Source: Escherichia phage VTCCBPA_322
DNA: 64,000 bases
Sequence record: PP989839.1
Strand: one strand, 5' to 3'
Position numbers and translations under genes: made by a program
In this document: piece by piece, positions 724-31,130 of the stretch
Layout of the letters: each line of letters opens with the position of its first letter
Position numbering within the stretch: the stretch's first letter is position 1
The notes under the pieces: model-generated
Seen by the model: only the letters and a program-made list of their open reading frames with translations
The model's database searches: none
What the model was told of the DNA's origin: nothing

Positions 724-3021
724 ATGAACGAAATGTTCTCGCAAGGTGGCAAAGGCTCCACTGGTATTCTTACCAATAAGCAAGCTATTGCCCGTCATTT
801 TGGTATTAAGCAATCCGAGGTTCTTTACTTCTCTGTTGGTGCTGTATTAGATGGTTATAAAGTCATTTATGACAAGTCCACTCAAAGGAGTTATTCCTTA
901 CCTGCTGGTATTCCATCTGGCACTACTGCTATTAGTCTAAGCACTGCTGCTGTACTTGTACACTCAGCAGGCAGTGAGGACTTAGGTACTTTGGCTGCTA
1001 CTCGTAAGGAATTTATAACTAAGCAGGAGAACTTTAATACAGGCTTTACTATTAGTACCCATAATGAGCAAGTAGTTACTCCTGGTGGGGTTTACTACTG
1101 GGCAGGGTCTTTACCTAAAGTTGTACCTCCTGGTTCCTCTATTGAGGAAACTGGTGGGGTGAATGCTACTGCATGGGTTAATTCATACTCCAATGCTGTC
1201 TTATGTATTAAGGATTTGCTGACACATCCACAGGGTGGCACAGTTAGTGTGGTTGGTTACATTTCTGGTACGGACTTTGGTGGTGGTGATTTTTACTGGG
1301 ATGCTACTCGTCCACGTAGTAAACATAATGGTATTACAGTATTCAGTCCTACTGTTCCATTTAGTGGTTTATATACGGATATACCGAATTTCCATGCTAA
1401 GGTTGGAGAGACTGCACCTGATGCCAATGGTTGTTGGGTGCGTAAGGACTGTGGTCGTAAAGTTCTAATGTCATGGGGTGGTGTAGATATTTCAGGCACT
1501 CAGCCAATGGATGCCGTAGTAACAAGTATGTGTACTTATGTGCATAATACTCGTCAGATTTTGGATGCTGATGAGAATGCTGTACTTAAGGCAGGGTTTA
1601 CTACCGGTACTCAGACCAAAGATAAGCACAATGTGTTTACCCAAGCTTCTGTAATCTTAGAGGGTAAGTATGTCACCATTCGTGGTAATGGGGCTAAGAT
1701 TGATACATATCACCCTGTCCACAGAGAACGTTCTGTATTTGTTCTTCGTAATGGTGGGTATAACATTTCTGGTTTTAAATGGAATGATGGGTACACTGAC
1801 TTTAGTACTTCCCCTACGGATACCCAGCACAAACAAGGTGAATGGTGGATGGGTATTGTTGCAGATGGTGCAGTTACTTTAGTAGCTGACCACCATGAAG
1901 TAACTGCTTCTCAGGTATTTGTACGAGCAGATGCATTTAATGCTACGGACTGGAATGAAAGAGTAACTGTACGGTATAGTAAGTTTGACTACATTACTAA
2001 CTACTGTTTCCTTAGTCGTAAGCTGAAACATTATGAGTTCAGCTACAATGAGGTTAAACACAATGGCCGTGAGTGGCATACTTATGGGGAAGCATGTGCT
2101 CCAACCACATACACCACACATACTATTATACGTAGTAATAACTTCTTCAATCAGATCGCAGAACAATCCTGTATTACTCCTGGGTCATACCATAAGTCCT
2201 GTCTGATTGTTAATAACCATTGTGAACGCTATCGAGGCATTTTCGTTGAGATTGGTTCTTCCAGTAATATCAGCATTCTGAATAACTACTCTTATTCCAG
2301 TGGTGAAAGGGATAGTTCTCATATCCTACTTGTATCTGGTGGGGTAGATGACGAACCAGAGGGTGGTTTGAATAACTTGTTGATTAACGGTAATGTGTTT
2401 GAGAGTGGACCGTATACGCTGCGGGAGTACAACACTGGTACTCCAGTTCGCAGAGGCATTACATTCTCTAATAACCACATTATTGATTGCCCTATGCCTA
2501 ATATGGGTAATGCTGCTTACCACTCAATGGCATTTACCAATAACTACTGCCAGCCACCAGCAGACTTCCCGTATCTGGTATGGGCAGGTAAGAATCCAAT
2601 TATTGAAGGCAATACTTTTGTTGGTGGGGTTATTCGTGCTAGAGATCTGGGTTATACCATTACTAACCCAATCATTCGTAATAACGTATTCCGTGATGGT
2701 AGTACTGTTCAGACATTCCCTGCATTAATTGATATGACTGACTTTACCCGTTTAGTTGCTGAGGGTAACGATGTAACTAATGCTACCTTTACTCGTGTAA
2801 TTGTTGATCCAGCCAACTGTACTTCGGTCGGGTTTAAACGTATTGGGCAGGCAGAGGGTTTTGAATCTAACCCAGCTACCTTGTATGGTGCTAAACTTAC
2901 GGATGTAATTAATGGTGATATTGTGATGAACAATAACCCAGGTAATGCTGAAGGTGGTTACGCATGGGTATGCGTAAATTCTGGTTCTAAACAATTTGGT
3001 AAAATTGTCGTAGCTGTGTAA
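724..3021 (+). CDS. tailspike / tail fiber with right-handed beta-helix (pectate-lyase-like) domain, putative depolymerase
   Basis: ATG with GAAGAGG RBS; 765 aa; Asn-rich rung segments (NNHCERYRGIFVEIG, NNLLINGNVFESG, FSNNHIIDCP, IRNNVFRDG) typical of parallel beta-helix tailspikes; strong terminator downstream. Confidence 0.65.
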   Translation: MNEMFSQGGKGSTGILTNKQAIARHFGIKQSEVLYFSVGAVLDGYKVIYDKSTQRSYSLPAGIPSGTTAISLSTAAVLVHSAGSEDLGTLAATRKEFITKQENFNTGFTISTHNEQVVTPGGVYYWAGSLPKVVPPGSSIEETGGVNATAWVNSYSNAVLCIKDLLTHPQGGTVSVVGYISGTDFGGGDFYWDATRPRSKHNGITVFSPTVPFSGLYTDIPNFHAKVGETAPDANGCWVRKDCGRKVLMSWGGVDISGTQPMDAVVTSMCTYVHNTRQILDADENAVLKAGFTTGTQTKDKHNVFTQASVILEGKYVTIRGNGAKIDTYHPVHRERSVFVLRNGGYNISGFKWNDGYTDFSTSPTDTQHKQGEWWMGIVADGAVTLVADHHEVTASQVFVRADAFNATDWNERVTVRYSKFDYITNYCFLSRKLKHYEFSYNEVKHNGREWHTYGEACAPTTYTTHTIIRSNNFFNQIAEQSCITPGSYHKSCLIVNNHCERYRGIFVEIGSSSNISILNNYSYSSGERDSSHILLVSGGVDDEPEGGLNNLLINGNVFESGPYTLREYNTGTPVRRGITFSNNHIIDCPMPNMGNAAYHSMAFTNNYCQPPADFPYLVWAGKNPIIEGNTFVGGVIRARDLGYTITNPIIRNNVFRDGSTVQTFPALIDMTDFTRLVAEGNDVTNATFTRVIVDPANCTSVGFKRIGQAEGFESNPATLYGAKLTDVINGDIVMNNNPGNAEGGYAWVCVNSGSKQFGKIVVAV

Positions 3022-3024
3022 ACG

Positions 3025-3050
3025 AAAGCCCCCAATTAAGGGGGCTTTTC
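3025..3050. terminator. intrinsic terminator shared by tailspike gene (+) and opposite-strand ORF (-)
   Basis: AAAGCCCCC-AATTAAG-GGGGGCTTT stem-loop followed by TTTTCC on plus strand; A-run gives U-run on minus strand. Confidence 0.7.
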
Positions 3051-3500
3051 CTATATGGAGTTCACTGTTTGCATTACCCTGACTGACACTGATGTTAGGG
3101 TAATTACTTGACCTGAGATATTGAACATACCCAGCTGGATACCATCTACCATAAACGGGTCTGTTGAACCGAGTGTGTAAGTAGCTAATACATTATCTCT
3201 GTTAGCAATGTCCGTACCTTGTACCTTAACACTAGCGTCTGAACCCACTATCGTAGTTCCATTGGTTCGCCTTGTTTGTGTTCTCCATTCCCTAGCTGTA
3301 CCAGCACCTCCTGCAATAGTTCCTGAGATACGTACACTAAACATTACCTGGGTATTTCTGGTTCTAACAGGAAACTTAAGATTACCCTCTTCAATTGTTA
3401 GTGCTGCTGTACCTCCAGGAGTTTTAGTCATGCCTGGTAAAGCAAAGTAATTGAACCAGGACTGGTCATTTACTGCCTGGTTCCCTGTCCACGTATACAA
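3051..3500 (-). CDS. hypothetical protein encoded opposite to the late module
   Basis: 450-nt stop-free frame (chance unlikely); TTG at 3500 or ATG at 3431 as start, neither with a strong RBS; Gly/Thr-rich product. Confidence 0.35.
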   Translation of the reverse strand: MYTWTGNQAVNDQSWFNYFALPGMTKTPGGTAALTIEEGNLKFPVRTRNTQVMFSVRISGTIAGGAGTAREWRTQTRRTNGTTIVGSDASVKVQGTDIANRDNVLATYTLGSTDPFMVDGIQLGMFNISGQVITLTSVSVRVMQTVNSI

Positions 3501-17345: not shown

Positions 17346-17383
17346 TTCCTATATACGATATAAGTTTGAACAGGAAACATGCT

Positions 17384-20300
17384 ATGTCAACATTTGACCG
17401 TCTGGCAGGTTTCGCAGACAGCATCACTAATGCCAAGCAAGTCGATGTCTCTACTGCAACCTCTCAGAAGCAAGCTGCACAAGGGCAAAGCCCTTTCCAA
17501 TTAACCCCAGAGAATGCTTACAATCTCCAAACTGGTCGTGTAGGTAATCTTGGAATCGGTGCATTCGAACCAGGTTCACTTCAGGCAGATTTCACTCAAG
17601 CCTCTCCATTAGAAATTCTTAATAAATACGGTAATGAGCAAGGTCTACAGATTCTTAATAGCCGAGCTAATGCTGCTGATGTTGTACGTCAGGACTTATC
17701 TAAGCAACGTACTAACGCAGAAGCATTTGGTGATACTCTTTCTGGTGTTGGTCTTGGTGTTGCTAATACCCTTGGGGGCATTGCTGCTCTTGGCACAGGT
17801 CTGGTCAATGATAATGCCGGGGCATCCATTGCTTCCGGGATGGATTGGTTGAATGAAGGTGTACACAATCTACAGTCTGATGCACTGAATGCTACCCGTA
17901 AGGTTGTTCAGAATCAGAACCTGATTTCTGCACAAAAGAACCAGAAACTTTATGAAGAAGACATTAAGAATGGGGAGAGCAGTTTGGTTGCCTCCTTGTC
18001 TCGCATTGGTCGTGACGCTTTTGATTCCGTTGCTAATACACTTGATAATGGTATGGCTGCCACCGATGGACTGAGTGAAGGTGTTGGTTCCCTCTTTACT
18101 GGTGGTCCACTTATCCGTGGTGTATCTGCACTTGGTAAAGTAATGGTAGGTGGTGATAAAGCTATTAAAGGTATTACCTTAGCTGCTGAGTTAGGTTCAC
18201 GCCCTGCACAGGTTGCATTGTCTGCTGGTCGTGTTGCTGCACCTGCTATAGCAATTGGTGGTATGGAAGCTGGTGGTGCATACCAACAGACTGCTTCTGA
18301 AATCATGAAGATGTCCCATCAAGAATTAGCAAGTAAGTCTCCTGTTTATCAACAACATATTGCTGATGGTTTATCCCCTGATGAAGCTCGTCGTCAGACT
18401 GCATCTGAAACAGGTATCGTTGCTGCTGGCTTAACTGCTCCGGTTGCTGCTGCTACTGGTCCACTGGTATCCAAATTTGAACTCAACCCCCTTAAAGTAG
18501 GTTCACTGGCTGGTGCTGGCTCTAACATGCTACGTGAGACTGTAGAAGAAGGTATCCAGTCCGGTACTAGTCAGTTTGCACAGAACAAAGCAATTCAGGG
18601 TAATGTAGATGCTAAGCGTGATTTGCTTAAAGGTGTCGGTGAACAAGCAGGTCTTGGTGCACTTTATGGCTTCGGTAGTGCTGGTGTTGCTCAGGCTCCA
18701 GGTGCAACTGTTAAAGCTGTTGGTGCTTCTGCTGGGCCTGCTTTACGTACTACTCTGGCTGGTGCTTCTCTGGTTGGTAGTGCATTAGCAAAAGCTGCCT
18801 CTCCTATTACTAACATCCTGGTTCAACGTGGGGAAGAAGTTGCTAAGCGTAATGAACAAGCATCTCCTGTATCAGACGCTACAGTTAACGCTGCTGCACA
18901 AGAAGCTACTGCTCAGGCAGAACAAGCACAAGCAACTGTACAGGAAGCAGTAGATGCAATGGATATTTCTCCTGAAGAGAAAGCTGCTGCTACTCAGTAT
19001 GCTGCTGACTTAACTCAGGCAATGAAGTTTGACCCAGTAGAGTTAGAGCAAGCTAATCCAGCAATCCGTGAAGCTGTTTCTGGTTCCACTAACCGTGTAG
19101 AAGCTATTCAGAAGATGGCTGACCTGGTTAATACTGCTGAAGACCCTAACGTTCAAATGGAAGCTGCAATCCAGATGTATGACAACATCATGTCTATGGA
19201 TAGCTTCATTAATCGTGACCCGGGTGCTTTGGCTAATCTGGAACAGGGTTCTCCTGCTGCTAATATTGTTGACCAGTTCTCCGGTCTGATGGCTAACGTA
19301 CAGAATACTCCAAAGGTACTTCGTGCATTCCGTGCCATCCATTCTATGATTCAGGAACAGGCTGAAGCAGGTAAGTTAAAAGCTACTGAAGAAGCTAATC
19401 AAGCCCAAGCAAACAACATTGCTATGGCTGCTGATATGTCTCCAGAAGTATTGGATGCAGATTCAGTGAACATGGTTCTGAAACATGCAAGTGAAGGTAA
19501 GATTACACTGGGTAATCGTCAGCGTGCTGCCTTGCAATCTGCTGCTGCTTTATTACAAGGAGCACGGGAATTTGACGCTAAAGCAGAAGAACTGGGCTTA
19601 CGTCCTCAGGACATTGTTAGTAAACAGATTAAAACCGACGAATCTCGTTCTAATGAAGGTCAGTACTCTGCGTTGCAACATGCTAAACGCATTCGTTCTG
19701 CGTACAACTCTGGTAACTTCGATTTGGCTTCCGCTTATCTCGACGACTTTATGAAGTTCGCCCAGCACATGCAGAATAAGGTCGGAGCGTTGAATGAGCA
19801 TCTGATTTCTGGGAATGCGGATAAGAATAAGTCTGTCCATTATCAGGCTCTTACTCCCTCCCGTGAATGGGTACGTAGTCGTACTGGCCTCGGTGTCAAT
19901 CCGTATGATACCAAGTCGGTTAAGTTTGCCCAGCAAGTAGGACTGGAGGCCAAAACCGTAGCTGATATTGCTAATGCACTTGCTACGGCTTACCCGGAGC
20001 TTAATGTTTCTCATGTGAAGGTTACCCCATTAGATTCACGTCTGGACAAGCCTGCTGCCCAGGTGGTTAAAGAGTTCCGTCAGGGCAATCTTGACGCTGC
20101 TCAATCCCAACAGACCAATGAACCAGTGAATCAGGTTGATAAATCTCCTGCACCTGTGCAAGAGGCCACTACTACTGTACAGCCTAAAGCTAAACTAGTG
20201 GTAGAAAATAAGACTGTTCCTGTTAAGGAGACTAGTTCAAAAGCAGAAGAAGTCTCTACTACCGAATCCGAAAGGGATGCTTATGTGAAAGAAAATACTA

Positions 20301-23300
20301 TTTCACAGGACATCCTCAATAAGAGCGGTGATCGTAGAGAGAGTCCTTGGCTCTTTGCTGATGGTACTGTTGTTGGTTCTAACGGCGATCACATTAGCCT
20401 GTCCGATGTATTTGGTCACGATGGCTATCGTGATATGTCTTTGGATACTGGTGCTGTACGTTCTACTTTCTATAAAGGCAGTGAGCAACCATTCGTATCT
20501 TTGCAACTTTTTGATAATCAGAAGCTAACTACTGAACAATTCAATACTGTTCAATCATTCGTAGAAGCAAACAATGCACTGATTCAGATTGGTGTAGATA
20601 CGTCTGGGCGTAACACCAATAACGTTGAGAAGATAGAAGTATCACTGGCCCAACTGAAAGCAGACTATACCGTTGGTGGTAAACCCCTGTCTGAGATGGA
20701 AACAGTGTTCCCTGTCTATAACAATGACAAGACACCGAACCAGTTCCTGAAAGCATTTACCCTGCCGGAAGAACCTAAGTCTCGCACCATTGGTTCTGAA
20801 TCCCCTTTGACTGATGTTAAGCAAGCACTGTCTTCTGCTGCTCGCTTTGAAGCATTCACTCAAAAAGAAAATAACGCTCTCACAAGTGATGTGATTAAGC
20901 GTTATCAGGACTTAATGGACTTTGGTGAAACTCTGAAGACTACTTTGTCTGACCGTCTGACTAAGTTTCTTGCTAATAAGAATGTTGGTAAACGTTTTGC
21001 AGAAGGTACTGAGGCTAACCGTTGGGTAGGTGGTAAGTTACTTAACATCGTAGAGAAAGATGGGGATACCTTTAAGTTCAATGACCAGTTGTTAGAGACT
21101 GCTGTACTTGCTGGTCTGCAATGGCGACTTACTGCTACACAAAATGCTGCTGTTAAAGATATGAAAGACGTAGCTGCTATTACTGGAGTAGAAGCATCCT
21201 TGTTACCTGAAGGTATCCTGGCTGAATTTGAGAATGCTCAGACTCTGGTTGAAGCTACTAACTCACTGGCTCAAAAGATTGAATCTTACTGGGGTCTGAA
21301 TCGTAATCCTAATGCACCTCTGGGTTATACCAAAGGTATCCCAATGGCAATGGCTACAGAGATTCTGTCTTCTTTCATTGAGATGGGTGAAGTTAAAGAA
21401 TCTATGCTGGATGTGTCTGAGTTTGACCCAGCTTCTAATAAGACTGTTGGTCTGTATACTATTGAGAAACTGGATGATAATGATGCCATTAACAAATTCC
21501 CTACTGCTATTGAGGAAGCTGTCCTCGTAGAACCAGAAGAGAAAATGTACTTTGGTGATGATATTCCTTCCGTGGCTCAAACACAGTTACGTAATCCTGC
21601 TGTTAAGAATACCCCAGAGCAGAAAGCTGCTCTTAAAGCAGAACAGGCTACCGAGTTCCGTGTACACATGCCTATGGTTAACTTCTATGAAGCATTAGGT
21701 CGTGACAACATTCTGGAACTGATGGGTGCTGGTACTCTTAATCCTGAACTGCTGAACGTGAATACTGCTAAATCATTGGAAGGTAAAAACCTGTCCGTGT
21801 CCATGGCATATGATTCCTTGTTTGGTGTAATCAATCAATTACAGGAACAGGAGAATGGTCTGGATACGCCTATTCACTATGGTTACAACATGACCCGTGT
21901 AGGTCGTATGCAGATGCTTGGTAAGAACAACCCACAATCCAGCAAGCTGGTTCGTGAAGCAATTCTGCCAACCTTCTCTACTATTGACTTAAGTAATGAA
22001 AATAGCCAAACGTTCTCTGACTTCCAGTTAGGTCTGGCTCAGGCATTGGGCATCAAGGTTCATAATATGTCCCGTGAAGCTATGTCTGAAAAACTGACCA
22101 AAGCTCTGGAAGGTAATTTGAAACCTGCTGTTGATATGATGGTTGAGTTTGATAAGTCCGGTCACTTACCTGCTGATGCAGTAGATATTCTGAAGACATC
22201 TCTGGGTGGTGATAAATCATTCGTAGCTCTTATGGCTCTTATGGAATATGCCCGTTACCTTAACAGTACTGACCGTGCTAACTTTAATACCCCACTGTAC
22301 GTTGAAGCCGATGGTGTAACCAACGGGCCAATCAATGCAATGGTATTAATGACCGGTGGTAAGTTCACTTCGGATTGGATTAAGAATACTGCTAAAGGTG
22401 GTTTGTTCTTCGGTAAAGCTGGTAAGACTATGAACGAACACCGTTCACAGGATGACAGTGTTGACTTGTATGAAGCATCTACTAATGGTCTGCAACAAGC
22501 ACTAAATGAGTTACGTACTACTTACCGTAATAATGTTCCGGTCATGAACCAGATGAATCATCTTCAGAAGTTAATGGACCTGTTCATTAAAGACTTTAAC
22601 CTGAACGAAGACGGTACTTTGGACCTGAAACGTGGTATCGCTAAAAACCCACTGACTATTACCATCTATGGTTCTGGTGCTCGTGGTATTGCTGGCAAGA
22701 TGGTTAGTGCAATTACTGACACCATCTATGAACGCTTCAGTGATGTTCTGCAAGCTCGTGCTGCTGACCCTAGCATTTCCCCAGCTATGGCAATGTTTGG
22801 TAAGGAGGCTGCGTCTGAGGCTAATGCTCAGGCTATGCTGGATACTTTCCTTACATCTATGGAAGCACTGACTGGTAATGTTCCAGTTATGCGTAAAGGT
22901 CAACTGTCTATTCAACAGGTAGAAGGTGCTCTGACTGGTAAGTTAGACCCACAGAAATTTACTGTATCTGGTAATGCCCTGAAGAACTTACAAGAGAACA
23001 TGCTTCACCTGTTCGTTGAACCAATGCGTACTGGTATCCGTAATACTGTTGGTGAAGGTCTTATGCATTCTACTGAGAACTTGCAGAAGGCTACCCAGAT
23101 TCAGTCTTTGGTTCTGCAAGACATGTTCCAACAAGCAGTACAGGCTAAGCTGGCAGAAAAAGAAAAAGACCCAACATGGAAGAAGGGTGATTTCTTAACA
23201 CAGAAAGAACTTAATGAAATCCAGGAATCATTATCTCCACTGGCTCCAATGATTGAGACTGGTTCACAGACTTTCTACATTGCTGGTAGTGAGAATACTG

Positions 23301-26300
23301 ACGTTGCTAACCAAGTTCTGGCTACCAACTTAGATGATCGTATGCGTGTGCCAATGAGCATCTATGCTCCTTCACAGGCAGGCGTTGCAGGTATTCCATT
23401 TATGACCATTGGTACTGGCGATGGCATGATGATGCAGACCCTTTCTACTATGAAAGGTGCTCCGAAGAATACCCTGAAAATCTTTGATGGTATGAACATT
23501 GGTATCGACAACATCACTGATGCAAGTCGTAAAGCTAACGAGGCTGTATACACTTCCTGGCAGGGTAACCCTATCAAGAATGTCTACGACTCCTTCTCTA
23601 AGTTCATGAAGAATGTAGACTTCAGCAAACTGTCTGATGAAACCAAACAGGCTATCGCTAAATCTGCTCTGGAATATGACCAGCGTGAAGGTGCTACCGA
23701 TGACCTGTTACGTGTTGGTGCTGAACAGATTGAACGTAATCTGCGCAACATTGCTCTGGGTGTGGATATTCGCCACAAAGTAATGAACCAGGTACAGACT
23801 ACTGTTGACCAGATGGCTGCTGTAGGTGCTCCTTATGTGAACAACGGTAAAATCTCTCTGGAAGGTCTGACTGTAGACCAGCAAGTAGCTAAGCTGAACG
23901 AACTGTTTGATGCTGAGTTAAACAAGCGTCGTGATGCAGTACGTGCTGCTAAAGCAGAACCAGTGAAAGAAGTACCAGCAATGGAACAGGTTGGTCGTGT
24001 ACTGAAGTCTGGTGTACGTCTGCTGTCTAATACTGCTATCTCTAAGCTGGCTAAAGAGATGTCTCCGGAACAGCAAGCGGTACTGAAAGAAGTACAGAAA
24101 TCCCTTGCTGCTAAAGACTACAAAGTTGTTTATGGTACTCCTGCTCAATTAGATGCTTATGCTATTGAGAAGAATATTACTCGCCCAGCACCAGAAGATA
24201 TTGAAGCTGCTGAAGCAGGTAATGCATACGGCTGGACTAACTTTGATGATAAGACTATCTACTTAGTTACCCCTTCCTTGGAGACTCTGGTTCATGAATT
24301 GGTACATGCTTCTACTTTCGAATCTGTACTGGCTCATTATGAAGGTACTCCAAATGAAGCAGTCCAAAATATTGAAGACTTAATGAATCAGTTCCGTACT
24401 CTGGATGTTAAGGATGAATCTCCGGCAGTACGCGAAGCATATGCAGATGCTCTTAATACCATTAATGGTCATTTGTCTAATGGCTTCATTGAACCAGCAA
24501 TGGCTAAAGCTGCTGCACTTAACGAGTACATGGCATGGGGTTTAACTAACCGTGAACTAATTAGCAAGCAGAAGAAAACTACTGCACTGAAGACTATGGT
24601 TCAGGCTGTGTATGAAGCAATCAAGCGTCTGGTATTCGGACGTAAGAAAGCTCCCGCTAATGCAGATGATATGTTCTCTGGTTTACTATTTAACTCTGCT
24701 GTAGTTATGCGAGGACAAGCTCCTACTGCTGCTGTAGCCAAGGATACTACTCTGTTCCATAACAAAGCATACGGTGACAATACTCGTCTGGAAGAGCTAG
24801 GGAAAACCTTCGATAAACTGATTACAGACTACATTGGTTCAGAACCAGTACAACAAGTAATTCGTAAGGGTAAATTCTCTGATGCAGTAGTGAATGCAAC
24901 TAAAGTAACCCGTGATGTTCAGGCTCATGGCTTCACTATGAATATGCAGGAACAGCGTCTATTCACTAACATCGTTGCTGCTCTGGCTACTGAAGCTGCC
25001 ATTAGTCCTGCTGCCCTGGCTCGTGCACAGGAATACTATACGCATGTTACTAAGAACCTGACCGTTGAATCGTTCATGGCTGACCCGGATAGTACTAACC
25101 CTGCTGACCGTTACTATGCTCAACAGAAGTTCGATACCATTATGGGTGCTAACAATATTGAGTTTGATGCACAGGGCCGTTCTTCCTTACTGCCTACCTT
25201 TGTTGGTCTGGCAATGGTAAGTGAAGAGGTACGTAAAGTACTGGCAGACATTCCTGTTATGAAAGCAGATAAGCAATCCGGTAATACAGTTGATGCAATG
25301 CTGACTAACATTGGTACTGCTGCAATGGCTAGTCTGAATGCTCGTGTAGCGGGTGATACTAAGGCTACCAATGTACAGGAAGGTATGGATGCACTGGCTC
25401 AGACAATCATGCAGACGAGTCTCAATGCACAGTCCTTCTATGATTCCGTTGCTACTCCTAGTGGTAATGCTATTGACCGTGCTAACCAGTATCTGGTGGA
25501 TTCTATTGATGCATTGTCTACCCGTGCTTTAGAAGGTGCTCGTGAAGTTGCAGCTAATACCAAGAACCCGTTGGTTAAAGGTGCTGCTCATGCTGCACAA
25601 CTAATAGCTGCTATTGCTACAGAGAAGAATGGTGAAATCGTAGCTGAAGGCGTTATGGCTGCAATGAACCAGGGTAAAGTGTGGCAACCTTTCCATGACC
25701 TGGTTAATGACTTAACAGGCCGTACTAAGAGCAATGCTTCTGTATACGATTTGATTAAGGCAGTACGTGCACAGGTACAAGCTGACCGTCAACAGTTCCG
25801 TGAACATTTGCCTACCACTATCGCATCTAAGTTCAGCCGTAAGCTGACTAATGATGAATGGAAAGCAATGCATACTGGTATGGGTAAAACTGACTTAGCT
25901 GTTTTACGTGACACTATGTCTCTGGCTGAAATTCGTGACTTGCTGACTGACCAAAAGATTGTTGACCGTGAAGTGAATAAGCTGGAAGCAGACTTACAGA
26001 AACAAGCTGGTCGTAACTGGCCTCTGATTAGCCGTAAATCTAAGCAACTAGCTCAGTACATGATTAACGGTACAGTTGGTAATAACCTGCTGCGTAATGC
26101 TACAGCAATCTCTCGTATGCTGGGTGAACGTCAGGCTGCACGTTCTACTGTAGATGTAGCTCAACTGGATAAACTGATTACTCTGTATGCACTGGAAGCA
26201 ATGAGTAAGACTGACCGTGAGATGTTATCTTCACTGGCTCAATCAGAAGTTGATGGAATTGATTTTGCTACTTCTTACCTGGTTGGTCAGCGTAAAGATG

Positions 26301-28096
26301 AAATGGCTAAAGCCAAGTCTGACATGCGTGCAACCCTGAACCAGTACAAAGGTTATATCCCAAGTGAGACTAAGCAAGGTGTTAACCTGATTGTTGCTGA
26401 AGACAGTCAATTTGCTGATTTGATTGAGAAGTCTTATGTACGTCTGGGTACTTATCAAGGTAGTTCTGCTAATCGTGGTTCAGCACGTAGCTACTACTTC
26501 GCACCGGTACAGGCACAGGCTCCATTCTCACAGGGTATTCTACAGAACGTTCGTAATACTGCTGGTGGTGTAGACCTTGGTACAGGATTTACGATGGGAA
26601 CCATGGTGGCTGGTCGTATTACTGACAAGCCTTCTGTAGACCGTATCACTAAAGCACTGGCTCGTGGTGAACGAGGTAATGAGCCACTGATGCCTGTATA
26701 TGATGACAAAGGTAATGTAGTTGCTTATGAACAATCTATTGACCCTAACATGCTGAAGCACATTGAGGGTGAGAACCATCTTGCTCGTGCAATCGGTGTA
26801 TGGCGTGGTCGTCAGGTGGAAGAAGCTAAGGCTCAGCGTTTCAACGATATGCTAATTGAGAATCTGCATAGCATGTATGAGAACGACATTAAGATGTCTG
26901 CCTCTAATAAGTCCCAGTACGTTAACCTTCTTGGTTCTAAGCTGGACCCAGTAACTGCTGATGCCCTTAAGCTGATGAACAGTGAAACACGTCAGAAAGC
27001 AGAAAGCCTGTTTGGCGAAGGTGAACTGTGGGTTCGTCGTGACATGCTGAATGATGCACTAGGCTATCGTGCAGCTTCCGTTGGTGATGCCTGGTCTGGT
27101 AATTCTCGTTGGTCCCCGGAAACACTGGATACCTTTAAGAAAGCTATGCTTGGTGTGTTCGGCAACCGTGCCTACAAGTATGTAATGGGTGGTGAGAACC
27201 TGGTTCAGAACTTAGTTAAAGAAGCTAAGACTCTGATTGTAGTTAAATCAGTGGTTGTACCTGCTGTTAACTTCCTGGCTAACCTTTACCAGATGGTTGG
27301 TCGTGGTGTACCCGTTAAGAACATTGCTAAAAGCATTCCACAGAAGACTGCTGAGATTAACCAGTACCTGAAATCTCGTCTGCGTCAGGTAGACGCAGAA
27401 GCAGAATTACGTGCAGCCACTAACCCGAACCAGATTCGTAAACTTAAGGCTGAGATTCAGTCTATTACTGACAGCCATAAGCGTATGAGTATCTGGCCTC
27501 TGTTAGAAGCTGGTGAGTTCTCTTCAATTGCAGATGCTGGTATTGGGCGTGATGATATCCTGATTACTGAGGGTAAACTCCATGAATACATGGATAAACT
27601 GGCTGATAAGTTACCTAAGTCTGTACGCAACGCTGGACGTTATGCACTTATCACCAAAGATACTGCTCTCTTCCAGGGTATCCAGAAGACGGTTGAGTAC
27701 TCTGACTTTATCGCTAAAGCAATCATCTATGATGATTTGACTCAGCGTAAAGGTAAGACTCGTGAAGAAGCACTAGGACGTGTAACGGAGGAGTTCATTA
27801 ACTATGACCGTTTGCCTGGTCGCTTCCGTGGGTATATGGAAAGTGTTGGTTTAATGTGGTTCTACAACTTTAAGATTCGTTCTGCGAAAATTGCAGTATC
27901 CATGATTCGTAACAACCCGGTACATGCAGCTATGGCTATGTTGGCTCCAACTCCTACCATGTTTGGTAACGTTGGTTTACCTATTCAGGACAACATCTTC
28001 AGTATTGCTGCACAAGGTAATCTTGGTTACTCCTGGGGCTTCGGTCAGGGCTTACGTGCCCATAACCTTAACCCTTGGCTCAACCTCACTAACTAA
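17384..28096 (+). CDS. virion-encapsidated giant RNA polymerase (N4 gp50-like vRNAP)
   Basis: 3570-aa ORF (ATG 17384 with AGGAAA RBS; track start 17366 is TTG); central region has T7-like polymerase motifs: DG near PLYVEADGVTNGPINA, motif B-like KNPLTITIYGSGARG, motif C-like KIFDGMNIG; hallmark of N4-like phages. Confidence 0.9.
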   Translation: MSTFDRLAGFADSITNAKQVDVSTATSQKQAAQGQSPFQLTPENAYNLQTGRVGNLGIGAFEPGSLQADFTQASPLEILNKYGNEQGLQILNSRANAADVVRQDLSKQRTNAEAFGDTLSGVGLGVANTLGGIAALGTGLVNDNAGASIASGMDWLNEGVHNLQSDALNATRKVVQNQNLISAQKNQKLYEEDIKNGESSLVASLSRIGRDAFDSVANTLDNGMAATDGLSEGVGSLFTGGPLIRGVSALGKVMVGGDKAIKGITLAAELGSRPAQVALSAGRVAAPAIAIGGMEAGGAYQQTASEIMKMSHQELASKSPVYQQHIADGLSPDEARRQTASETGIVAAGLTAPVAAATGPLVSKFELNPLKVGSLAGAGSNMLRETVEEGIQSGTSQFAQNKAIQGNVDAKRDLLKGVGEQAGLGALYGFGSAGVAQAPGATVKAVGASAGPALRTTLAGASLVGSALAKAASPITNILVQRGEEVAKRNEQASPVSDATVNAAAQEATAQAEQAQATVQEAVDAMDISPEEKAAATQYAADLTQAMKFDPVELEQANPAIREAVSGSTNRVEAIQKMADLVNTAEDPNVQMEAAIQMYDNIMSMDSFINRDPGALANLEQGSPAANIVDQFSGLMANVQNTPKVLRAFRAIHSMIQEQAEAGKLKATEEANQAQANNIAMAADMSPEVLDADSVNMVLKHASEGKITLGNRQRAALQSAAALLQGAREFDAKAEELGLRPQDIVSKQIKTDESRSNEGQYSALQHAKRIRSAYNSGNFDLASAYLDDFMKFAQHMQNKVGALNEHLISGNADKNKSVHYQALTPSREWVRSRTGLGVNPYDTKSVKFAQQVGLEAKTVADIANALATAYPELNVSHVKVTPLDSRLDKPAAQVVKEFRQGNLDAAQSQQTNEPVNQVDKSPAPVQEATTTVQPKAKLVVENKTVPVKETSSKAEEVSTTESERDAYVKENTISQDILNKSGDRRESPWLFADGTVVGSNGDHISLSDVFGHDGYRDMSLDTGAVRSTFYKGSEQPFVSLQLFDNQKLTTEQFNTVQSFVEANNALIQIGVDTSGRNTNNVEKIEVSLAQLKADYTVGGKPLSEMETVFPVYNNDKTPNQFLKAFTLPEEPKSRTIGSESPLTDVKQALSSAARFEAFTQKENNALTSDVIKRYQDLMDFGETLKTTLSDRLTKFLANKNVGKRFAEGTEANRWVGGKLLNIVEKDGDTFKFNDQLLETAVLAGLQWRLTATQNAAVKDMKDVAAITGVEASLLPEGILAEFENAQTLVEATNSLAQKIESYWGLNRNPNAPLGYTKGIPMAMATEILSSFIEMGEVKESMLDVSEFDPASNKTVGLYTIEKLDDNDAINKFPTAIEEAVLVEPEEKMYFGDDIPSVAQTQLRNPAVKNTPEQKAALKAEQATEFRVHMPMVNFYEALGRDNILELMGAGTLNPELLNVNTAKSLEGKNLSVSMAYDSLFGVINQLQEQENGLDTPIHYGYNMTRVGRMQMLGKNNPQSSKLVREAILPTFSTIDLSNENSQTFSDFQLGLAQALGIKVHNMSREAMSEKLTKALEGNLKPAVDMMVEFDKSGHLPADAVDILKTSLGGDKSFVALMALMEYARYLNSTDRANFNTPLYVEADGVTNGPINAMVLMTGGKFTSDWIKNTAKGGLFFGKAGKTMNEHRSQDDSVDLYEASTNGLQQALNELRTTYRNNVPVMNQMNHLQKLMDLFIKDFNLNEDGTLDLKRGIAKNPLTITIYGSGARGIAGKMVSAITDTIYERFSDVLQARAADPSISPAMAMFGKEAASEANAQAMLDTFLTSMEALTGNVPVMRKGQLSIQQVEGALTGKLDPQKFTVSGNALKNLQENMLHLFVEPMRTGIRNTVGEGLMHSTENLQKATQIQSLVLQDMFQQAVQAKLAEKEKDPTWKKGDFLTQKELNEIQESLSPLAPMIETGSQTFYIAGSENTDVANQVLATNLDDRMRVPMSIYAPSQAGVAGIPFMTIGTGDGMMMQTLSTMKGAPKNTLKIFDGMNIGIDNITDASRKANEAVYTSWQGNPIKNVYDSFSKFMKNVDFSKLSDETKQAIAKSALEYDQREGATDDLLRVGAEQIERNLRNIALGVDIRHKVMNQVQTTVDQMAAVGAPYVNNGKISLEGLTVDQQVAKLNELFDAELNKRRDAVRAAKAEPVKEVPAMEQVGRVLKSGVRLLSNTAISKLAKEMSPEQQAVLKEVQKSLAAKDYKVVYGTPAQLDAYAIEKNITRPAPEDIEAAEAGNAYGWTNFDDKTIYLVTPSLETLVHELVHASTFESVLAHYEGTPNEAVQNIEDLMNQFRTLDVKDESPAVREAYADALNTINGHLSNGFIEPAMAKAAALNEYMAWGLTNRELISKQKKTTALKTMVQAVYEAIKRLVFGRKKAPANADDMFSGLLFNSAVVMRGQAPTAAVAKDTTLFHNKAYGDNTRLEELGKTFDKLITDYIGSEPVQQVIRKGKFSDAVVNATKVTRDVQAHGFTMNMQEQRLFTNIVAALATEAAISPAALARAQEYYTHVTKNLTVESFMADPDSTNPADRYYAQQKFDTIMGANNIEFDAQGRSSLLPTFVGLAMVSEEVRKVLADIPVMKADKQSGNTVDAMLTNIGTAAMASLNARVAGDTKATNVQEGMDALAQTIMQTSLNAQSFYDSVATPSGNAIDRANQYLVDSIDALSTRALEGAREVAANTKNPLVKGAAHAAQLIAAIATEKNGEIVAEGVMAAMNQGKVWQPFHDLVNDLTGRTKSNASVYDLIKAVRAQVQADRQQFREHLPTTIASKFSRKLTNDEWKAMHTGMGKTDLAVLRDTMSLAEIRDLLTDQKIVDREVNKLEADLQKQAGRNWPLISRKSKQLAQYMINGTVGNNLLRNATAISRMLGERQAARSTVDVAQLDKLITLYALEAMSKTDREMLSSLAQSEVDGIDFATSYLVGQRKDEMAKAKSDMRATLNQYKGYIPSETKQGVNLIVAEDSQFADLIEKSYVRLGTYQGSSANRGSARSYYFAPVQAQAPFSQGILQNVRNTAGGVDLGTGFTMGTMVAGRITDKPSVDRITKALARGERGNEPLMPVYDDKGNVVAYEQSIDPNMLKHIEGENHLARAIGVWRGRQVEEAKAQRFNDMLIENLHSMYENDIKMSASNKSQYVNLLGSKLDPVTADALKLMNSETRQKAESLFGEGELWVRRDMLNDALGYRAASVGDAWSGNSRWSPETLDTFKKAMLGVFGNRAYKYVMGGENLVQNLVKEAKTLIVVKSVVVPAVNFLANLYQMVGRGVPVKNIAKSIPQKTAEINQYLKSRLRQVDAEAELRAATNPNQIRKLKAEIQSITDSHKRMSIWPLLEAGEFSSIADAGIGRDDILITEGKLHEYMDKLADKLPKSVRNAGRYALITKDTALFQGIQKTVEYSDFIAKAIIYDDLTQRKGKTREEALGRVTEEFINYDRLPGRFRGYMESVGLMWFYNFKIRSAKIAVSMIRNNPVHAAMAMLAPTPTMFGNVGLPIQDNIFSIAAQGNLGYSWGFGQGLRAHNLNPWLNLTN

Positions 28097-28870: not shown

Positions 28871-28930
28871 TATTAGCCTCATAGAGTGGTTTTAGTGTGT
28901 GCTTAAACATGATTACGTTTATTAATACTC

Positions 28931-28968
28931 AAATAAAAAAGTCCCCCAGAGTGACGGCTCCAGGGGAC
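28931..28968 (-). terminator. intrinsic terminator ending the non-coding / tRNA-like transcription unit
   Basis: minus strand AAGTCCCC...GGGGACTT stem followed by TTTTTTATTT. Confidence 0.65.
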
Positions 28969-29752
28969 TTAGTACTATTTACCCATAGCTGGGAGGCTTT
29001 TGGTTCTTACCACGAAGACAGTCCACGCTGACTAGGCTTGGGATTGATAGTCCCGTTCCTGTGGTAATTACTCAGGCTAGGATTTAAGGAGTTCCTATTC
29101 TCCAGCGAAATTCCCGTCGAGGGGAATAACAATACAATAGCAGCCACTGGACTGTCTTACCAGTGTTGTCTTTAGAGTGCTGTGCAATCAGGACTATGTT
29201 ACTGCTAAATAGGTGAGTCATGCCAGGCTCTAACTGGCTCCTTCTTCGCAATCCTTACATACCCCTACATAATTATTGCGTTAAGCTTTTTTGTTTAAGT
29301 TTAAGTGAAGGCGTTCTTGCTGACTCATAATTAGGTTGGGCGTTTGACGAATGACTAGTTCGTTACTACCCGTTTGCCATAAGTACCTGGCGACTTTGGT
29401 TTGAGGTGGGAGTCCGAGTCCTGTACAGCCTTACCGTTCACACATTGGCAGCGTATCTAGAATAGCACTTCCGGCAACTGGATTTAACTGTTACACCTCA
29501 AATCTGGTAGGGGCGTCCAGAAGTCTCATCTGGTACTTACGCCGTCGTATGGTTACGACTTACCCCCATTGTTAGTTGCTCGGCTCACCCCCTCGACTAA
29601 AGTGACCTTTGAGGGGCTACGCTACACTATGTGTTTCATCCCATTACAGAGAATCATCAGGCGTATTAGTTGGTCACCCCGGATACCTACTTACCGAGCA
29701 TTGGTATCGTATGACTCTTCCAATTAGAAGTAGCACTGTTGCAGTCGTCACT

Positions 29753-29826
29753 GCCCATAGGTAAGGACTCGAACCTTACAATACCATTGGTTTACAATGT
29801 CGCTGTACCATTTCGCGTTCTATGCA
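29753..29826 (-). tRNA. tRNA-sized tRNA-like element (degenerate or unusual tRNA)
   Basis: minus strand: canonical T-arm TAAGG-TTCGAGT-CCTTA, D-loop-like AAATGGTACA flanked by CGC/GCG, anticodon-like arm CATTG-TAAAC-CAATG; acceptor pairs only 5-6 of 7; no encoded CCA. Confidence 0.3.
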
Positions 29827-29840
29827 ATGCTACTTTGAAT

Positions 29841-29964
29841 TGGTTATCAGTGAAGGATTCGAACCTCCGGTTGGAGTCTATAGCTTACCGCAGCAGCCCT
29901 CCAATCTAGCGGTGTCACACTTAGTCCAAACTTGAACATGTCAAGCCATCTCGTGCAACTGATA
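29841..29964 (-). ncRNA. tRNA-like RNA, about 124 nt, with perfect acceptor stem, canonical T-arm and encoded CCA
   Basis: minus strand 5'-TATCAGT...GGAGG-TTCGAAT-CCTTC-ACTGATA-A-CCA-3'; 7/7 acceptor pairing; long internal stem TTGGAG/CTCCAA abutting T-arm; too long for a canonical tRNA. Confidence 0.45.
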
Positions 29965-29966
29965 AT

Positions 29967-30094
29967 TGGTTCCAGGAGAAGGAATCGAACCTCCAAGTCA
30001 GGCCGTGAACCCTGACTATATCACCTACACTTAGTAGGCTTACTCTAACTGCTGCGCATTACATTAAAGCTATACCTAGTGTTGATATCCTGGA
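29967..30094 (-). ncRNA. tRNA-like RNA, about 128 nt, with perfect acceptor stem, canonical T-arm and encoded CCA
   Basis: minus strand 5'-TCCAGGA...GGAGG-TTCGATT-CCTTC-TCCTGGA-A-CCA-3'; 7/7 acceptor pairing; 7-bp variable-arm-like hairpin AGTCAGG/CCTGACT abutting T-arm; separated from next element by AT. Confidence 0.45.
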
Positions 30095-31130
30095 ATTGGA
30101 GTTGCCAGGGATTCCACCTGGCTCCATCTGTTTTTATAGTCACTCAGATATCGTCTGGACTCTTTACTGTGGGCTGTACCGACTACTTAGAATAACTACG
30201 GCAAAGATTATTCCACAGCTTACATTGATGGTACAACCCATCAAAGAGTACACTAGCACTGGGCCACGCATAAGTGGGCATCGGCCTTCCTCCCACAGCT
30301 AATCTACTAATGTACTCATTGATAGGATGTCATAATAGGAGGGAGGGGACGAATCCTCCCTTTATACCCTATGTTGCATGTAAGACCTAACATCTCGATG
30401 TTGTATAAATAGCGTAATGAACTATCCGACATTATTGGTTAATGTTGTGCTCAACATGAGCGTTAGTTGATAAGGGATCTGAAGCCTTATCCTAAAGATT
30501 CTAACCTTTGGGATATAGCCTAAGATTCAGAAATGGCCCCTATAGGGAGAGGCCATTGATTAACCCGAATGTTGCTTTACATTTTCTGTAATAACCAATT
30601 CTTAAAATAGTCTGTCTGACGGATGGGGGGCCACCCCTAGCGTCAGTGCCATACGGCAAAGATTAAGTTAAGAAAGGTTATGATAGGAGTTCCTATCTCA
30701 AAGGATTCTAACAGAACCCTTCACGATATTAACTACTCTTTTTTAATGCCTTTACTTCACCATCTTTATACCAAGCATACGGTATTAAGATTTTGCATCC
30801 TTCCGAATCAATGTGGAATGCTTTTTTTCCTTCAGCAGGTTCTCCACCCACGAAAGAACTAACCTTTCCATTGAGCCAGTGAATAGTAAATTTGTTCATG
30901 CTAACCCCGTTTGAACCAATCCCCTTCGGAGAGTATTAAAGGGGACTGGTTCGGTTGTTGTTATTCTGGCGGCTTGTCACCACCGTGTTTACCACTGCAT
31001 TTCCACAGGATAATGACAGTGATGATAAAAGCTATGTATGGAGCCGACACGTCTATAATTCTGACCAGTAGTAGCATCAGGACTATAAACACTACCACAC
31101 CTAGCAGCAGCTTCTGAGCCACCTACCAGA

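Follow-up and report, generated by a model that had tools for sequence, protein, structure and literature searches.

Phage T4 encodes, within its tRNA operon, two structured RNAs other than tRNAs, species 1 and 2, which depend on the tRNA/RNA processing enzymes of the host for maturation; to our knowledge, they have been left without an assigned function for decades. Non-decoding tRNA shapes also occur within longer transcripts, i.e., in mitochondrial tRNA punctuation and in the MALAT1 mascRNA, where their acceptor ends are accessible and RNase P/Z cleaves them. In the processing stalks of rRNA operons and at the RNase III sites of phage T7, a stem of ~20 bp flanks a structured RNA that is excised by RNase III. 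Bacterial Y RNAs combine a terminal stem with a tRNA-like domain that TruB and DusA modify, and RNase P cleaves one such RNA (PMC4201824); YrlA-type RNAs occur in phages too (PMC4201824).

Here we describe a 124-nt module on the minus strand of a 64-kb stretch of DNA from Escherichia phage VTCCBPA_322 (the window), in which a tRNA-like cloverleaf is carried by a long stem. With the Y RNAs (YrlA in Salmonella and Mycobacterium, Yrn1 in Deinococcus) the module shares a length of ~100–130 nt, ends that form a long terminal stem, mimicry of the D and T arms and conserved elbow nucleotides and, as with these RNAs, it is predicted not to be generally aminoacylatable (PMC4201824). Yrn1 further resembles it in a 5-bp “anticodon” stem, a loop other than 7 nt and the D-then-T order (PMC4201824). 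In YrlA, the terminal stem departs from where the anticodon would be and a closed hairpin forms the acceptor, whereas in the module the stem continues the acceptor, as in Yrn1 (PMC4201824). Among the 10 flanking ORFs, Pfam identifies the N4 gp49 family, AAA_24, PriCT_1 and PDDEXK, and no Ro60/Rsr (TROVE) gene; a regular-expression search for the Ro-binding motif GNCGAAN0-1G (PMC4201824) matches 0 of 13 module sequences, and the Y-RNA-type covariance models of Rfam give no match at E<=10. Given the different topology and the lack of a nearby Ro60 gene, a Ro motif and an Rfam match, we regard the module as an analogue of the Y RNAs and not as a member of this class.

T4 species 1 and 2 RNAs possess tRNA-like acceptor/CCA ends and are thereby closer to two elements that lie upstream of the module (elements 1 and 2, below), while the module itself has no free end. 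Compared with mitochondrial punctuation and mascRNA, its ends are locked in a helix and its acceptor is limited to 5 bp. The flanking stem is comparable with those of rRNA stalks and T7 sites, with only 19 bp and 1–2 mismatches around an RNA of tRNA size, and is a candidate cleavage site.

Genome setting and composition of the RNA array

A blastn search with positions 28900–31100 of the window returns 185 phage records, the best of which are Escherichia phages of the genus Gamaleyavirus with 88–95% identity, and identifies the window as part of an N4-like coliphage (Schitoviridae, Enquatrovirinae, Gamaleyavirus). The ORF at 17366–28096(+), 3576 aa, is the virion RNA polymerase gene of Gamaleyavirus-type phages, a gene that carries the wrong label “DNA polymerase” in some records. 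The genes that follow are on the minus strand and include homologues of N4 SSB, a primase-like protein, AAA_24 and N4 gp49. Between the end of a 56-aa ORF (30729) and the gp49 homologue (28882–28490) there are ~1.8 kb without credible ORFs, and the cloverleaf element is located on the minus strand of this non-coding RNA region, with SSB-side genes on one side and the gp49 homologue on the other (Table 1). Small plus-strand ORFs in this region were rejected as coding, since the variants differ by 1- and 2-nt indels. In the public annotation of two relatives (L003, Bas96, 2025–3142; L006, K57alpha1.2, 1–2439), the RNA region is overlaid by CDS calls, i.e., rows of “hypothetical proteins” of 30–70 aa or a pseudo “tail spike protein”. 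These calls are very likely false, because the RNA covaries and indels break the frames.

Table 1 Features of the RNA array, in window positions
Feature	Position	Strand	Evidence or remark
sigma70-like promoter, extended -10	30732–30705	(-)	start of the non-coding RNA stretch
Second frame (I1), 24-nt inverted repeat around 50 nt	30330–30233	(-)	83% complementary
Element 1, 128 nt	30094–29967	(-)	perfect 7-bp acceptor stem, T arm, encoded ACCA
Element 2, 124 nt	29964–29841	(-)	perfect 7-bp acceptor stem, T arm, encoded ACCA
Whole module, 124 nt: outer stem, tRNA-like cloverleaf, extra hairpin	29720–29843	(-)	minimum free energy (MFE), RNAalifold, covariation
Outer stem, 5' arm, CCAATTCAAAGTAGCATTG	29825–29843	(-)	inverted repeat I2; 10 of 19 pairs changed on both sides
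Acceptor-like stem, 5' strand, CATAG	29820–29824	(-)	pairs with 29760–29756
D arm, 3-bp stem CGC/GCG, loop GAAATGGTACA with invariant GG	29801–29817	(-)	identical in 13 of 13 aligned
Anticodon-like hairpin, CATTG-TAAAC-CAATG	29785–29799	(-)	variable; second pair G-C, A-U or G.U
T arm, 6-bp stem GTAAGG/CCTTAC, loop TTCGAGT	29761–29779	(-)	two compensatory pairs; 100% paired
Acceptor-like stem, 3' strand, CTATG, then GG, no CCA	29756–29760	(-)	
Extra hairpin, GCAGT-GACG-ACTGC	29741–29754	(-)	in the gap between cloverleaf and 3' arm; 100% paired
Outer stem, 3' arm, CAGTGCTACTTCTAATTGG	29720–29738	(-)	inverted repeat, covariation, MFE
Intrinsic terminator, strong, 13-bp stem and T run	28970–28939	(-)	closes the RNA array

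The best-conserved block of the non-coding region, 30092–30161(-), a TATAAA block, shows 94–100% identity in all relatives and contains TGAGTGACTATAAAAAC (-10-like), followed by the hairpin CCAGG-TGGAATC-CCTGG. The tRNA-like array may have its promoter and 5' hairpin here. We propose that the array would be transcribed as a single RNA, either from the sigma70-like promoter, from the TATAAA block or from both, and that this transcript would end at the strong terminator. Weak Rfam His_leader matches (E = 0.06 and 2.5) coincide with the terminator hairpin and were dismissed as chance.

The two elements upstream of the module end in CCA and have non-tRNA interiors. In relatives, the acceptor stem of element 2 varies in a compensatory manner (UAUCAGU/ACUGAUA compared with UACCAGU/ACUGGUA), and compensatory changes are also observed in its T stem. 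Neither element is called by ARAGORN (standard run) or Rfam. Relaxed ARAGORN settings (-ps90, -ps80, -i) produce models of “intron-containing tRNAs” with “introns” of 31 and 45 nt, which were rejected because of their poor stems and because no splicing route exists in E. coli phages. In most relatives, element 1 is swapped for a 75-nt tRNA-like RNA (TCCGGTG...CGCCGGA-ACCA). The units of the array are divided by short ACCA-AT(T) spacers, which are typical of multimers processed by RNase P. The T-loop motif GTTCGANTC occurs three times within 230 nt on one strand, two of these in elements 1 and 2; in the whole 64 kb there are 9 copies against 5.9 expected.

At the junction 29208–29215, most relatives hold a cassette of ~157 nt with a tRNA-like gene and a tRNA-Ile(AAT). 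The tRNA-like gene has a 6/8-nt anticodon loop and is reported as “tRNA-???” by ARAGORN and as “Undet-NNN” by tRNAscan. The cassette is absent from the window, from PD205 and from the related locus L017, and this absence is the reason why VTCCBPA_322 has no ARAGORN-detectable tRNA. Across the region, tRNA-finder calls in relatives are inconsistent and include tRNA-Undet, “Pseudo”, odd anticodons and small ORFs.

Starting 8 nt after the outer stem of the module is an unannotated, conserved hammerhead-like RNA of ~140 nt (29712–29575(-)). It displays a complete type-I core, consisting of CUGAUGA (29660–29654), stem II, GAAA and stem III (ACAC-AUA-GUGU), with stem I UACGC/GCGUA at 29665–29661/29622–29618 and a predicted cut after A29623, and has extra helices and two pseudoknots. 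Rfam aligns it below threshold with the type-III family (HH3; 18.8 bits, E = 1.3). Homologues are found in PD205, a metagenome contig, Klebsiella phage 05F01 (Stephanstirmvirinae), Pseudomonas phage phita81A and nine IMG/VR contigs. The Pseudomonas type is partly out of register in our MAFFT alignment, yet 90.6% of the cells are paired, 10 pairs are doubly changed and the covariation score is reached by 0 of 500 shuffles; stems II and III and the two pseudoknots covary when inspected by eye. The copy in the window has a U.U mispair at 10.1/11.1, where the Pseudomonas copies have a canonical G-C pair; a mispair of this type was a rejection criterion of Perreault et al. (PMC3088659). Over 13 nt, the invariant GGUAUUGUA of the cloverleaf, 29777–29789(-), is complementary to the 5' part of the hammerhead, 29699–29711(-), with 12 pairs of which one is G.U; this match is probably due to chance, because most cloverleaf-bearing phages lack the hammerhead block.

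Structure, conservation and framing of the module

Read on the minus strand, the cloverleaf is GCATAG AA CGCG AAATGGTACA GCG A CATTG TAAAC CAATG GTATT GTAAGG TTCGAGT CCTTAC CTATG GG. The original prediction of a tRNA-like element at this site is borne out in its parts: the T arm is present as described (TAAGG 29778–29774, TTCGAGT 29773–29767, CCTTA 29766–29762), the D-loop-like AAATGGTACA is found at 29813–29804(-) in a loop with GG, the anticodon-like hairpin has an atypical loop of 5 nt, and the mismatched acceptor is reduced to 5 bp flanked by G.G and A.C mismatches. Its position is likewise confirmed, as on the minus strand it follows the two long elements of ~125 nt directly on their 3' side. 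The boundaries proposed at the time, 29826–29753, mark the right place, but the functional unit spans 29843–29720(-). This is evident from folding, since the 74-nt piece alone forms the cloverleaf no better than its shuffles do (z = -0.3), so that the earlier boundaries miss the true unit. In contrast, the MFE structure of the 131-nt piece 29845–29715 (-42.9 kcal/mol) is the proposed structure, with z = -4.96 and none of 200 shuffles as good, and similar results are obtained for TR2, Bas96 and IME11. An alternative fold with a longer acceptor (29829–29824 paired with 29754–29749) appears only when 88 nt are folded, and was rejected as the full module prefers the outer stem.

The outer stem comprises 19 bp with 1–2 internal mismatches, and the first three bases of its 5' arm are the CCA end of element 2. 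RNAalifold, given no structure, independently returns a consensus equal to the proposed module. Among 13 distinct aligned sequences, standard pairs occupy 94.6% of the pair cells and 15 of 43 pairs are changed on both sides, values that are reached by none of 500 shuffles; when the partners are slid by 1–3 columns as a control, only 1–2 pairs are doubly changed. Ten of the doubly changed pairs are in the outer stem, two in the T stem and one each in the acceptor-like stem, the anticodon-like stem and the side hairpin. In TR2, CACAG/CTGTG replaces CATAG/CTATG in the acceptor-like stem and GCAAT/ATTGC replaces GCAGT/ACTGC in the extra hairpin, both compensatory. In the T stem, A-U is changed to G-C at two pairs, in five sequences and one sequence, respectively. 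The D stem is 100% paired and without variation, and hence gives no covariation support. By comparison of sequences, the structure of the module is shown to be under selection.

The helices of the cloverleaf and the outer stem differ in their non-Watson-Crick cells. Read on the minus strand, the cloverleaf helices contain five G.U and no A.C cells, which fits an RNA made from this strand, whereas the outer stem contains 17 A.C and four G.U cells, an excess with which this stem may be selected on either strand, and as RNA or as DNA. The double changes in the outer stem are, furthermore, mostly from one lineage, TR2, whose frame belongs to a second, paralogous type, and therefore represent few independent events.

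GG (29809–29808), TTCGA (29773–29769) and the equivalents of A15/U48 are invariant in all 13 aligned sequences, as is the “variable” segment GGUAUUG across the aligned variants. The nucleotides corresponding to the canonical tRNA elbow (G18G19; T54-Psi55-C56-R57-A58) are thus present and invariant, while the U8 and G10 equivalents are non-canonical, i.e., A and C. An L-shaped fold of the module is plausible as a model. The anticodon-like arm is variable; six variants, including that of the window, have a 5-bp stem with a 5-nt loop (UAAAC/CAAAC), seven have a 3-bp stem with a 7-nt loop (UAGCCAU), and no triplet is conserved. A kissing interaction between this loop and element 2 (GUUUG/AUGGCU) was considered and rejected, as IME11-type phages and TR2 have no element 2. 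The window-type loop UAAACCAA has the complement TTGGTTTA, of which the whole window contains 10 copies compared with 3.2 expected (0 of 100 shuffles reach 10) and without strand bias, an excess that is probably unrelated since the loop is not conserved among variants.

The cloverleaf is carried by 12 of the 185 related phage records, and is consequently dispensable. Additional carriers are one IMG/VR contig beyond IME11 and six metagenome contigs, and together with the phage records these give 15 distinct variants. A wider search with a degenerate pattern of 25 bases matches two viral and six metagenome contigs, and no bacterial or archaeal genome out of 185,579; of 50,697 phage records, only the 12 homologues have sequence similarity to the module. 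With our own covariance model (R1), each genome shows a single copy, and neither the window nor 18 loci contain paralogues. One carrier belongs to another genus, Salmonella phage TR2 (Triduovirus), in which homology in this part is confined to 29834–29729. As far as the sequences go, the module is shown to have passed from one phage genus to another as a single unit.

In most relatives, the frame is retained and the cloverleaf is missing. An outer stem of the same type surrounds an unrelated 41-nt interior in PBM-3, whose type of frame is matched by 37 records, and a 38-nt interior in Bp4 and St11Ph5. The second type of frame (I1) encloses ~50–55 nt in the window, the cloverleaf module in TR2, and 71–72 nt in PD205, AN24P2, L017, Bp4 and St11Ph5. 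Mosaic breakpoints among the relatives lie at the frame edges. The occurrence of one frame with unrelated interiors assigns the stems the role of conserved frames with exchangeable interiors, the cloverleaf being a swappable cargo. Nearly every substitution in the stems preserves pairing, and the cargo is better kept than the outer stem when TR2 is compared with the window.

Ancestry and rival explanations

With default settings, ARAGORN reports neither tRNA nor tmRNA genes in the whole 64-kb window, and with -ps90 there are no genes at the cloverleaf; the model obtained there with -ps80 is a badly paired 86-nt one in another register and was discarded. Rfam gives no match to the cloverleaf at gathering scores, and a 386-nt search at E<=10 yields no tRNA, tmRNA or Y-RNA match to it. 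The 7-bp acceptor and free 3' discriminator-CCA of canonical tRNAs are replaced by 5 bp, with G.G/A.C at the stem ends; the 5' strand of the acceptor runs unbroken into the 19-bp helix, and on the 3' side GG and a hairpin precede the helix. The module is shown to have neither an aminoacylatable end nor a conserved anticodon loop, and with no free 3' end or CCA and a loop of 5 or 7 nt the cloverleaf cannot decode. When a parent tRNA was sought with the 69-nt core (blastn, E<=10), only 10–12 homologues and chance T-arm matches were returned. In global alignments with genes of the same loci, the closest relative in sequence is the “tRNA-???” gene (z = 6.3), which has the loop GUAAACCAA in common with the cloverleaf, followed by tRNA-Cys(ACA) (z = 6.1), compared with z = 0.9–3.1 for ordinary tRNAs. 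The module thus looks like a captured relative of the cluster's own odd tRNA-like genes.

In our assessment the module is, on balance, likely to be an RNA domain that derives from a tRNA, does not decode and caps a long stem, and one cassette of a polycistronic array of tRNAs and tRNA-like RNAs. The original prediction offered a divergent tRNA or a decaying pseudo-tRNA, and while “tRNA-like” is upheld by the cloverleaf proportions and the intact elbow, neither of these identities is supported. A genuine, highly divergent decoding tRNA is scarcely credible: the proportions, a canonical T loop and the location in a tRNA cluster, where tRNAs of relatives also carry the odd anticodons AAT and ACA (PMC11927229), speak for it, but both strands continue into a closed stem without CCA/discriminator context, the loop of the window counts 5 nt and that of other variants 7 nt on a 3-bp stem, with no conserved anticodon, and the finders are negative. 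The negative finder calls (ARAGORN, Rfam) would suit a dead copy of a cluster tRNA gene, as would the mismatched acceptor, the missing CCA, the aberrant anticodon loop, the absence from most relatives and the resemblance to the neighbouring odd tRNA-like genes. Such a pseudo-tRNA is nevertheless highly improbable in view of its conservation, as every helix is kept in 15 distinct variants from two phage genera, no change occurs in the D loop, the T loop or the variable region, and nearly all stem substitutions keep pairing; in the acceptor, T and extra-hairpin stems together, a single pair-breaking cell contrasts with four compensatory doubles and one G.U change. The absence of a cloverleaf call by any of these tools is therefore not accompanied by an absence of conservation, the combination that would have spoken against the original prediction.

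Two further explanations accept the conservation and place its cause elsewhere. In one, the cloverleaf is a processing signal (“punctuation”) at which RNase P, and possibly 3' tRNases, cut and thereby mature the 3' side of element 2, with no further function. The cloverleaf indeed adjoins the ACCA of element 2 in an array with ACCA-AT(T) spacers, the elbow from which RNase P measures is intact and invariant, and some tRNA-mimic Y RNAs are cut by RNase P (PMC4201824). On the other hand, the acceptor/T stack amounts to 5+6 bp without a 7-bp acceptor and without RCCA, and Salmonella YrlA and Yrn1 are uncut by RNase P, which has been attributed to the missing 7-bp acceptor (PMC4201824). The would-be leader is moreover paired within the 19-bp stem, the TR2 module has no CCA-RNA upstream, and most relatives have the frame without the cloverleaf, all of which makes a pure processing signal distinctly unlikely. 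The other explanation, which we consider improbable, holds that an inverted repeat is selected at the DNA level, either as a “landing pad” for recombination or as a cassette of the MITE type, with the cloverleaf as a passenger, i.e., a captured tRNA-like fragment. It would account for the 19-bp inverted repeats around interchangeable interiors, the patchy distribution with mosaic breakpoints at frame edges, and the outer-stem preponderance of A.C over G.U cells on the RNA-strand reading. A mere passenger is, however, difficult to reconcile with compensatory changes in four helices, with wobbles that are exclusively pair-preserving G.U, and with better conservation of the passenger than of the frame between TR2 and the window; in addition, no target-site duplication, transposase or integrase is found nearby, and the 86-nt spacer would disfavour cruciform extrusion.

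Possible processing and role

For the non-decoding RNA domain at the tip of a long stem, a processing pathway can be proposed by analogy with rRNA stalks. The stem would be cut by a double-strand-specific nuclease, for which host RNase III is the obvious candidate; the conserved stem of 19 bp with 1–2 mismatches compares with about two turns of dsRNA for an RNase III-type stem. Cleavage in the stem would part the module from element 2, whose CCA is predicted to sit paired in the stem base, and would release a stable RNA of ~100 nt. The released RNA could then act via its tRNA-like elbow, binding or titrating a putative factor that reads the shape of a tRNA and not its anticodon or 3' end, such as a tRNA-modifying or processing enzyme, or a host defence protein directed at tRNA. 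Both RNase III cleavage and a role as decoy are what we infer, purely by analogy with known systems.

A bolder reading, tentative and rather doubtful, is that N4-like phages possess an undescribed kind of exchangeable small-RNA cassette made up of frames of ~19 bp and their cargos, with one cargo being a closed tRNA mimic that works as a Ro-independent decoy or sponge. If this were true, its target might be a host factor that reads tRNA shape, e.g., a defence nuclease acting on tRNAs or an enzyme of processing or modification, and the patchy mosaic distribution would reflect an arms race.

Annotation of phage tRNA clusters usually relies on tRNA finders and nothing else, and in this window the finders see nothing. 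At the Gamaleyavirus locus, CCA-ending tRNA-like RNAs, a closed tRNA mimic, frame stems and a hammerhead-like RNA that also occurs in unrelated Klebsiella and Pseudomonas phages make up a mosaic array. The mimic is a non-coding RNA in an unusual frame-and-cargo arrangement, with a putative molecular function in the mimicry of tRNA shape. Should it bind a host factor that recognizes tRNA, it would be a phage counterpart of the tRNA mimicry of bacterial Y RNAs and a candidate anti-defence RNA, encoded by a locus that is small, dispensable and genetically tractable.
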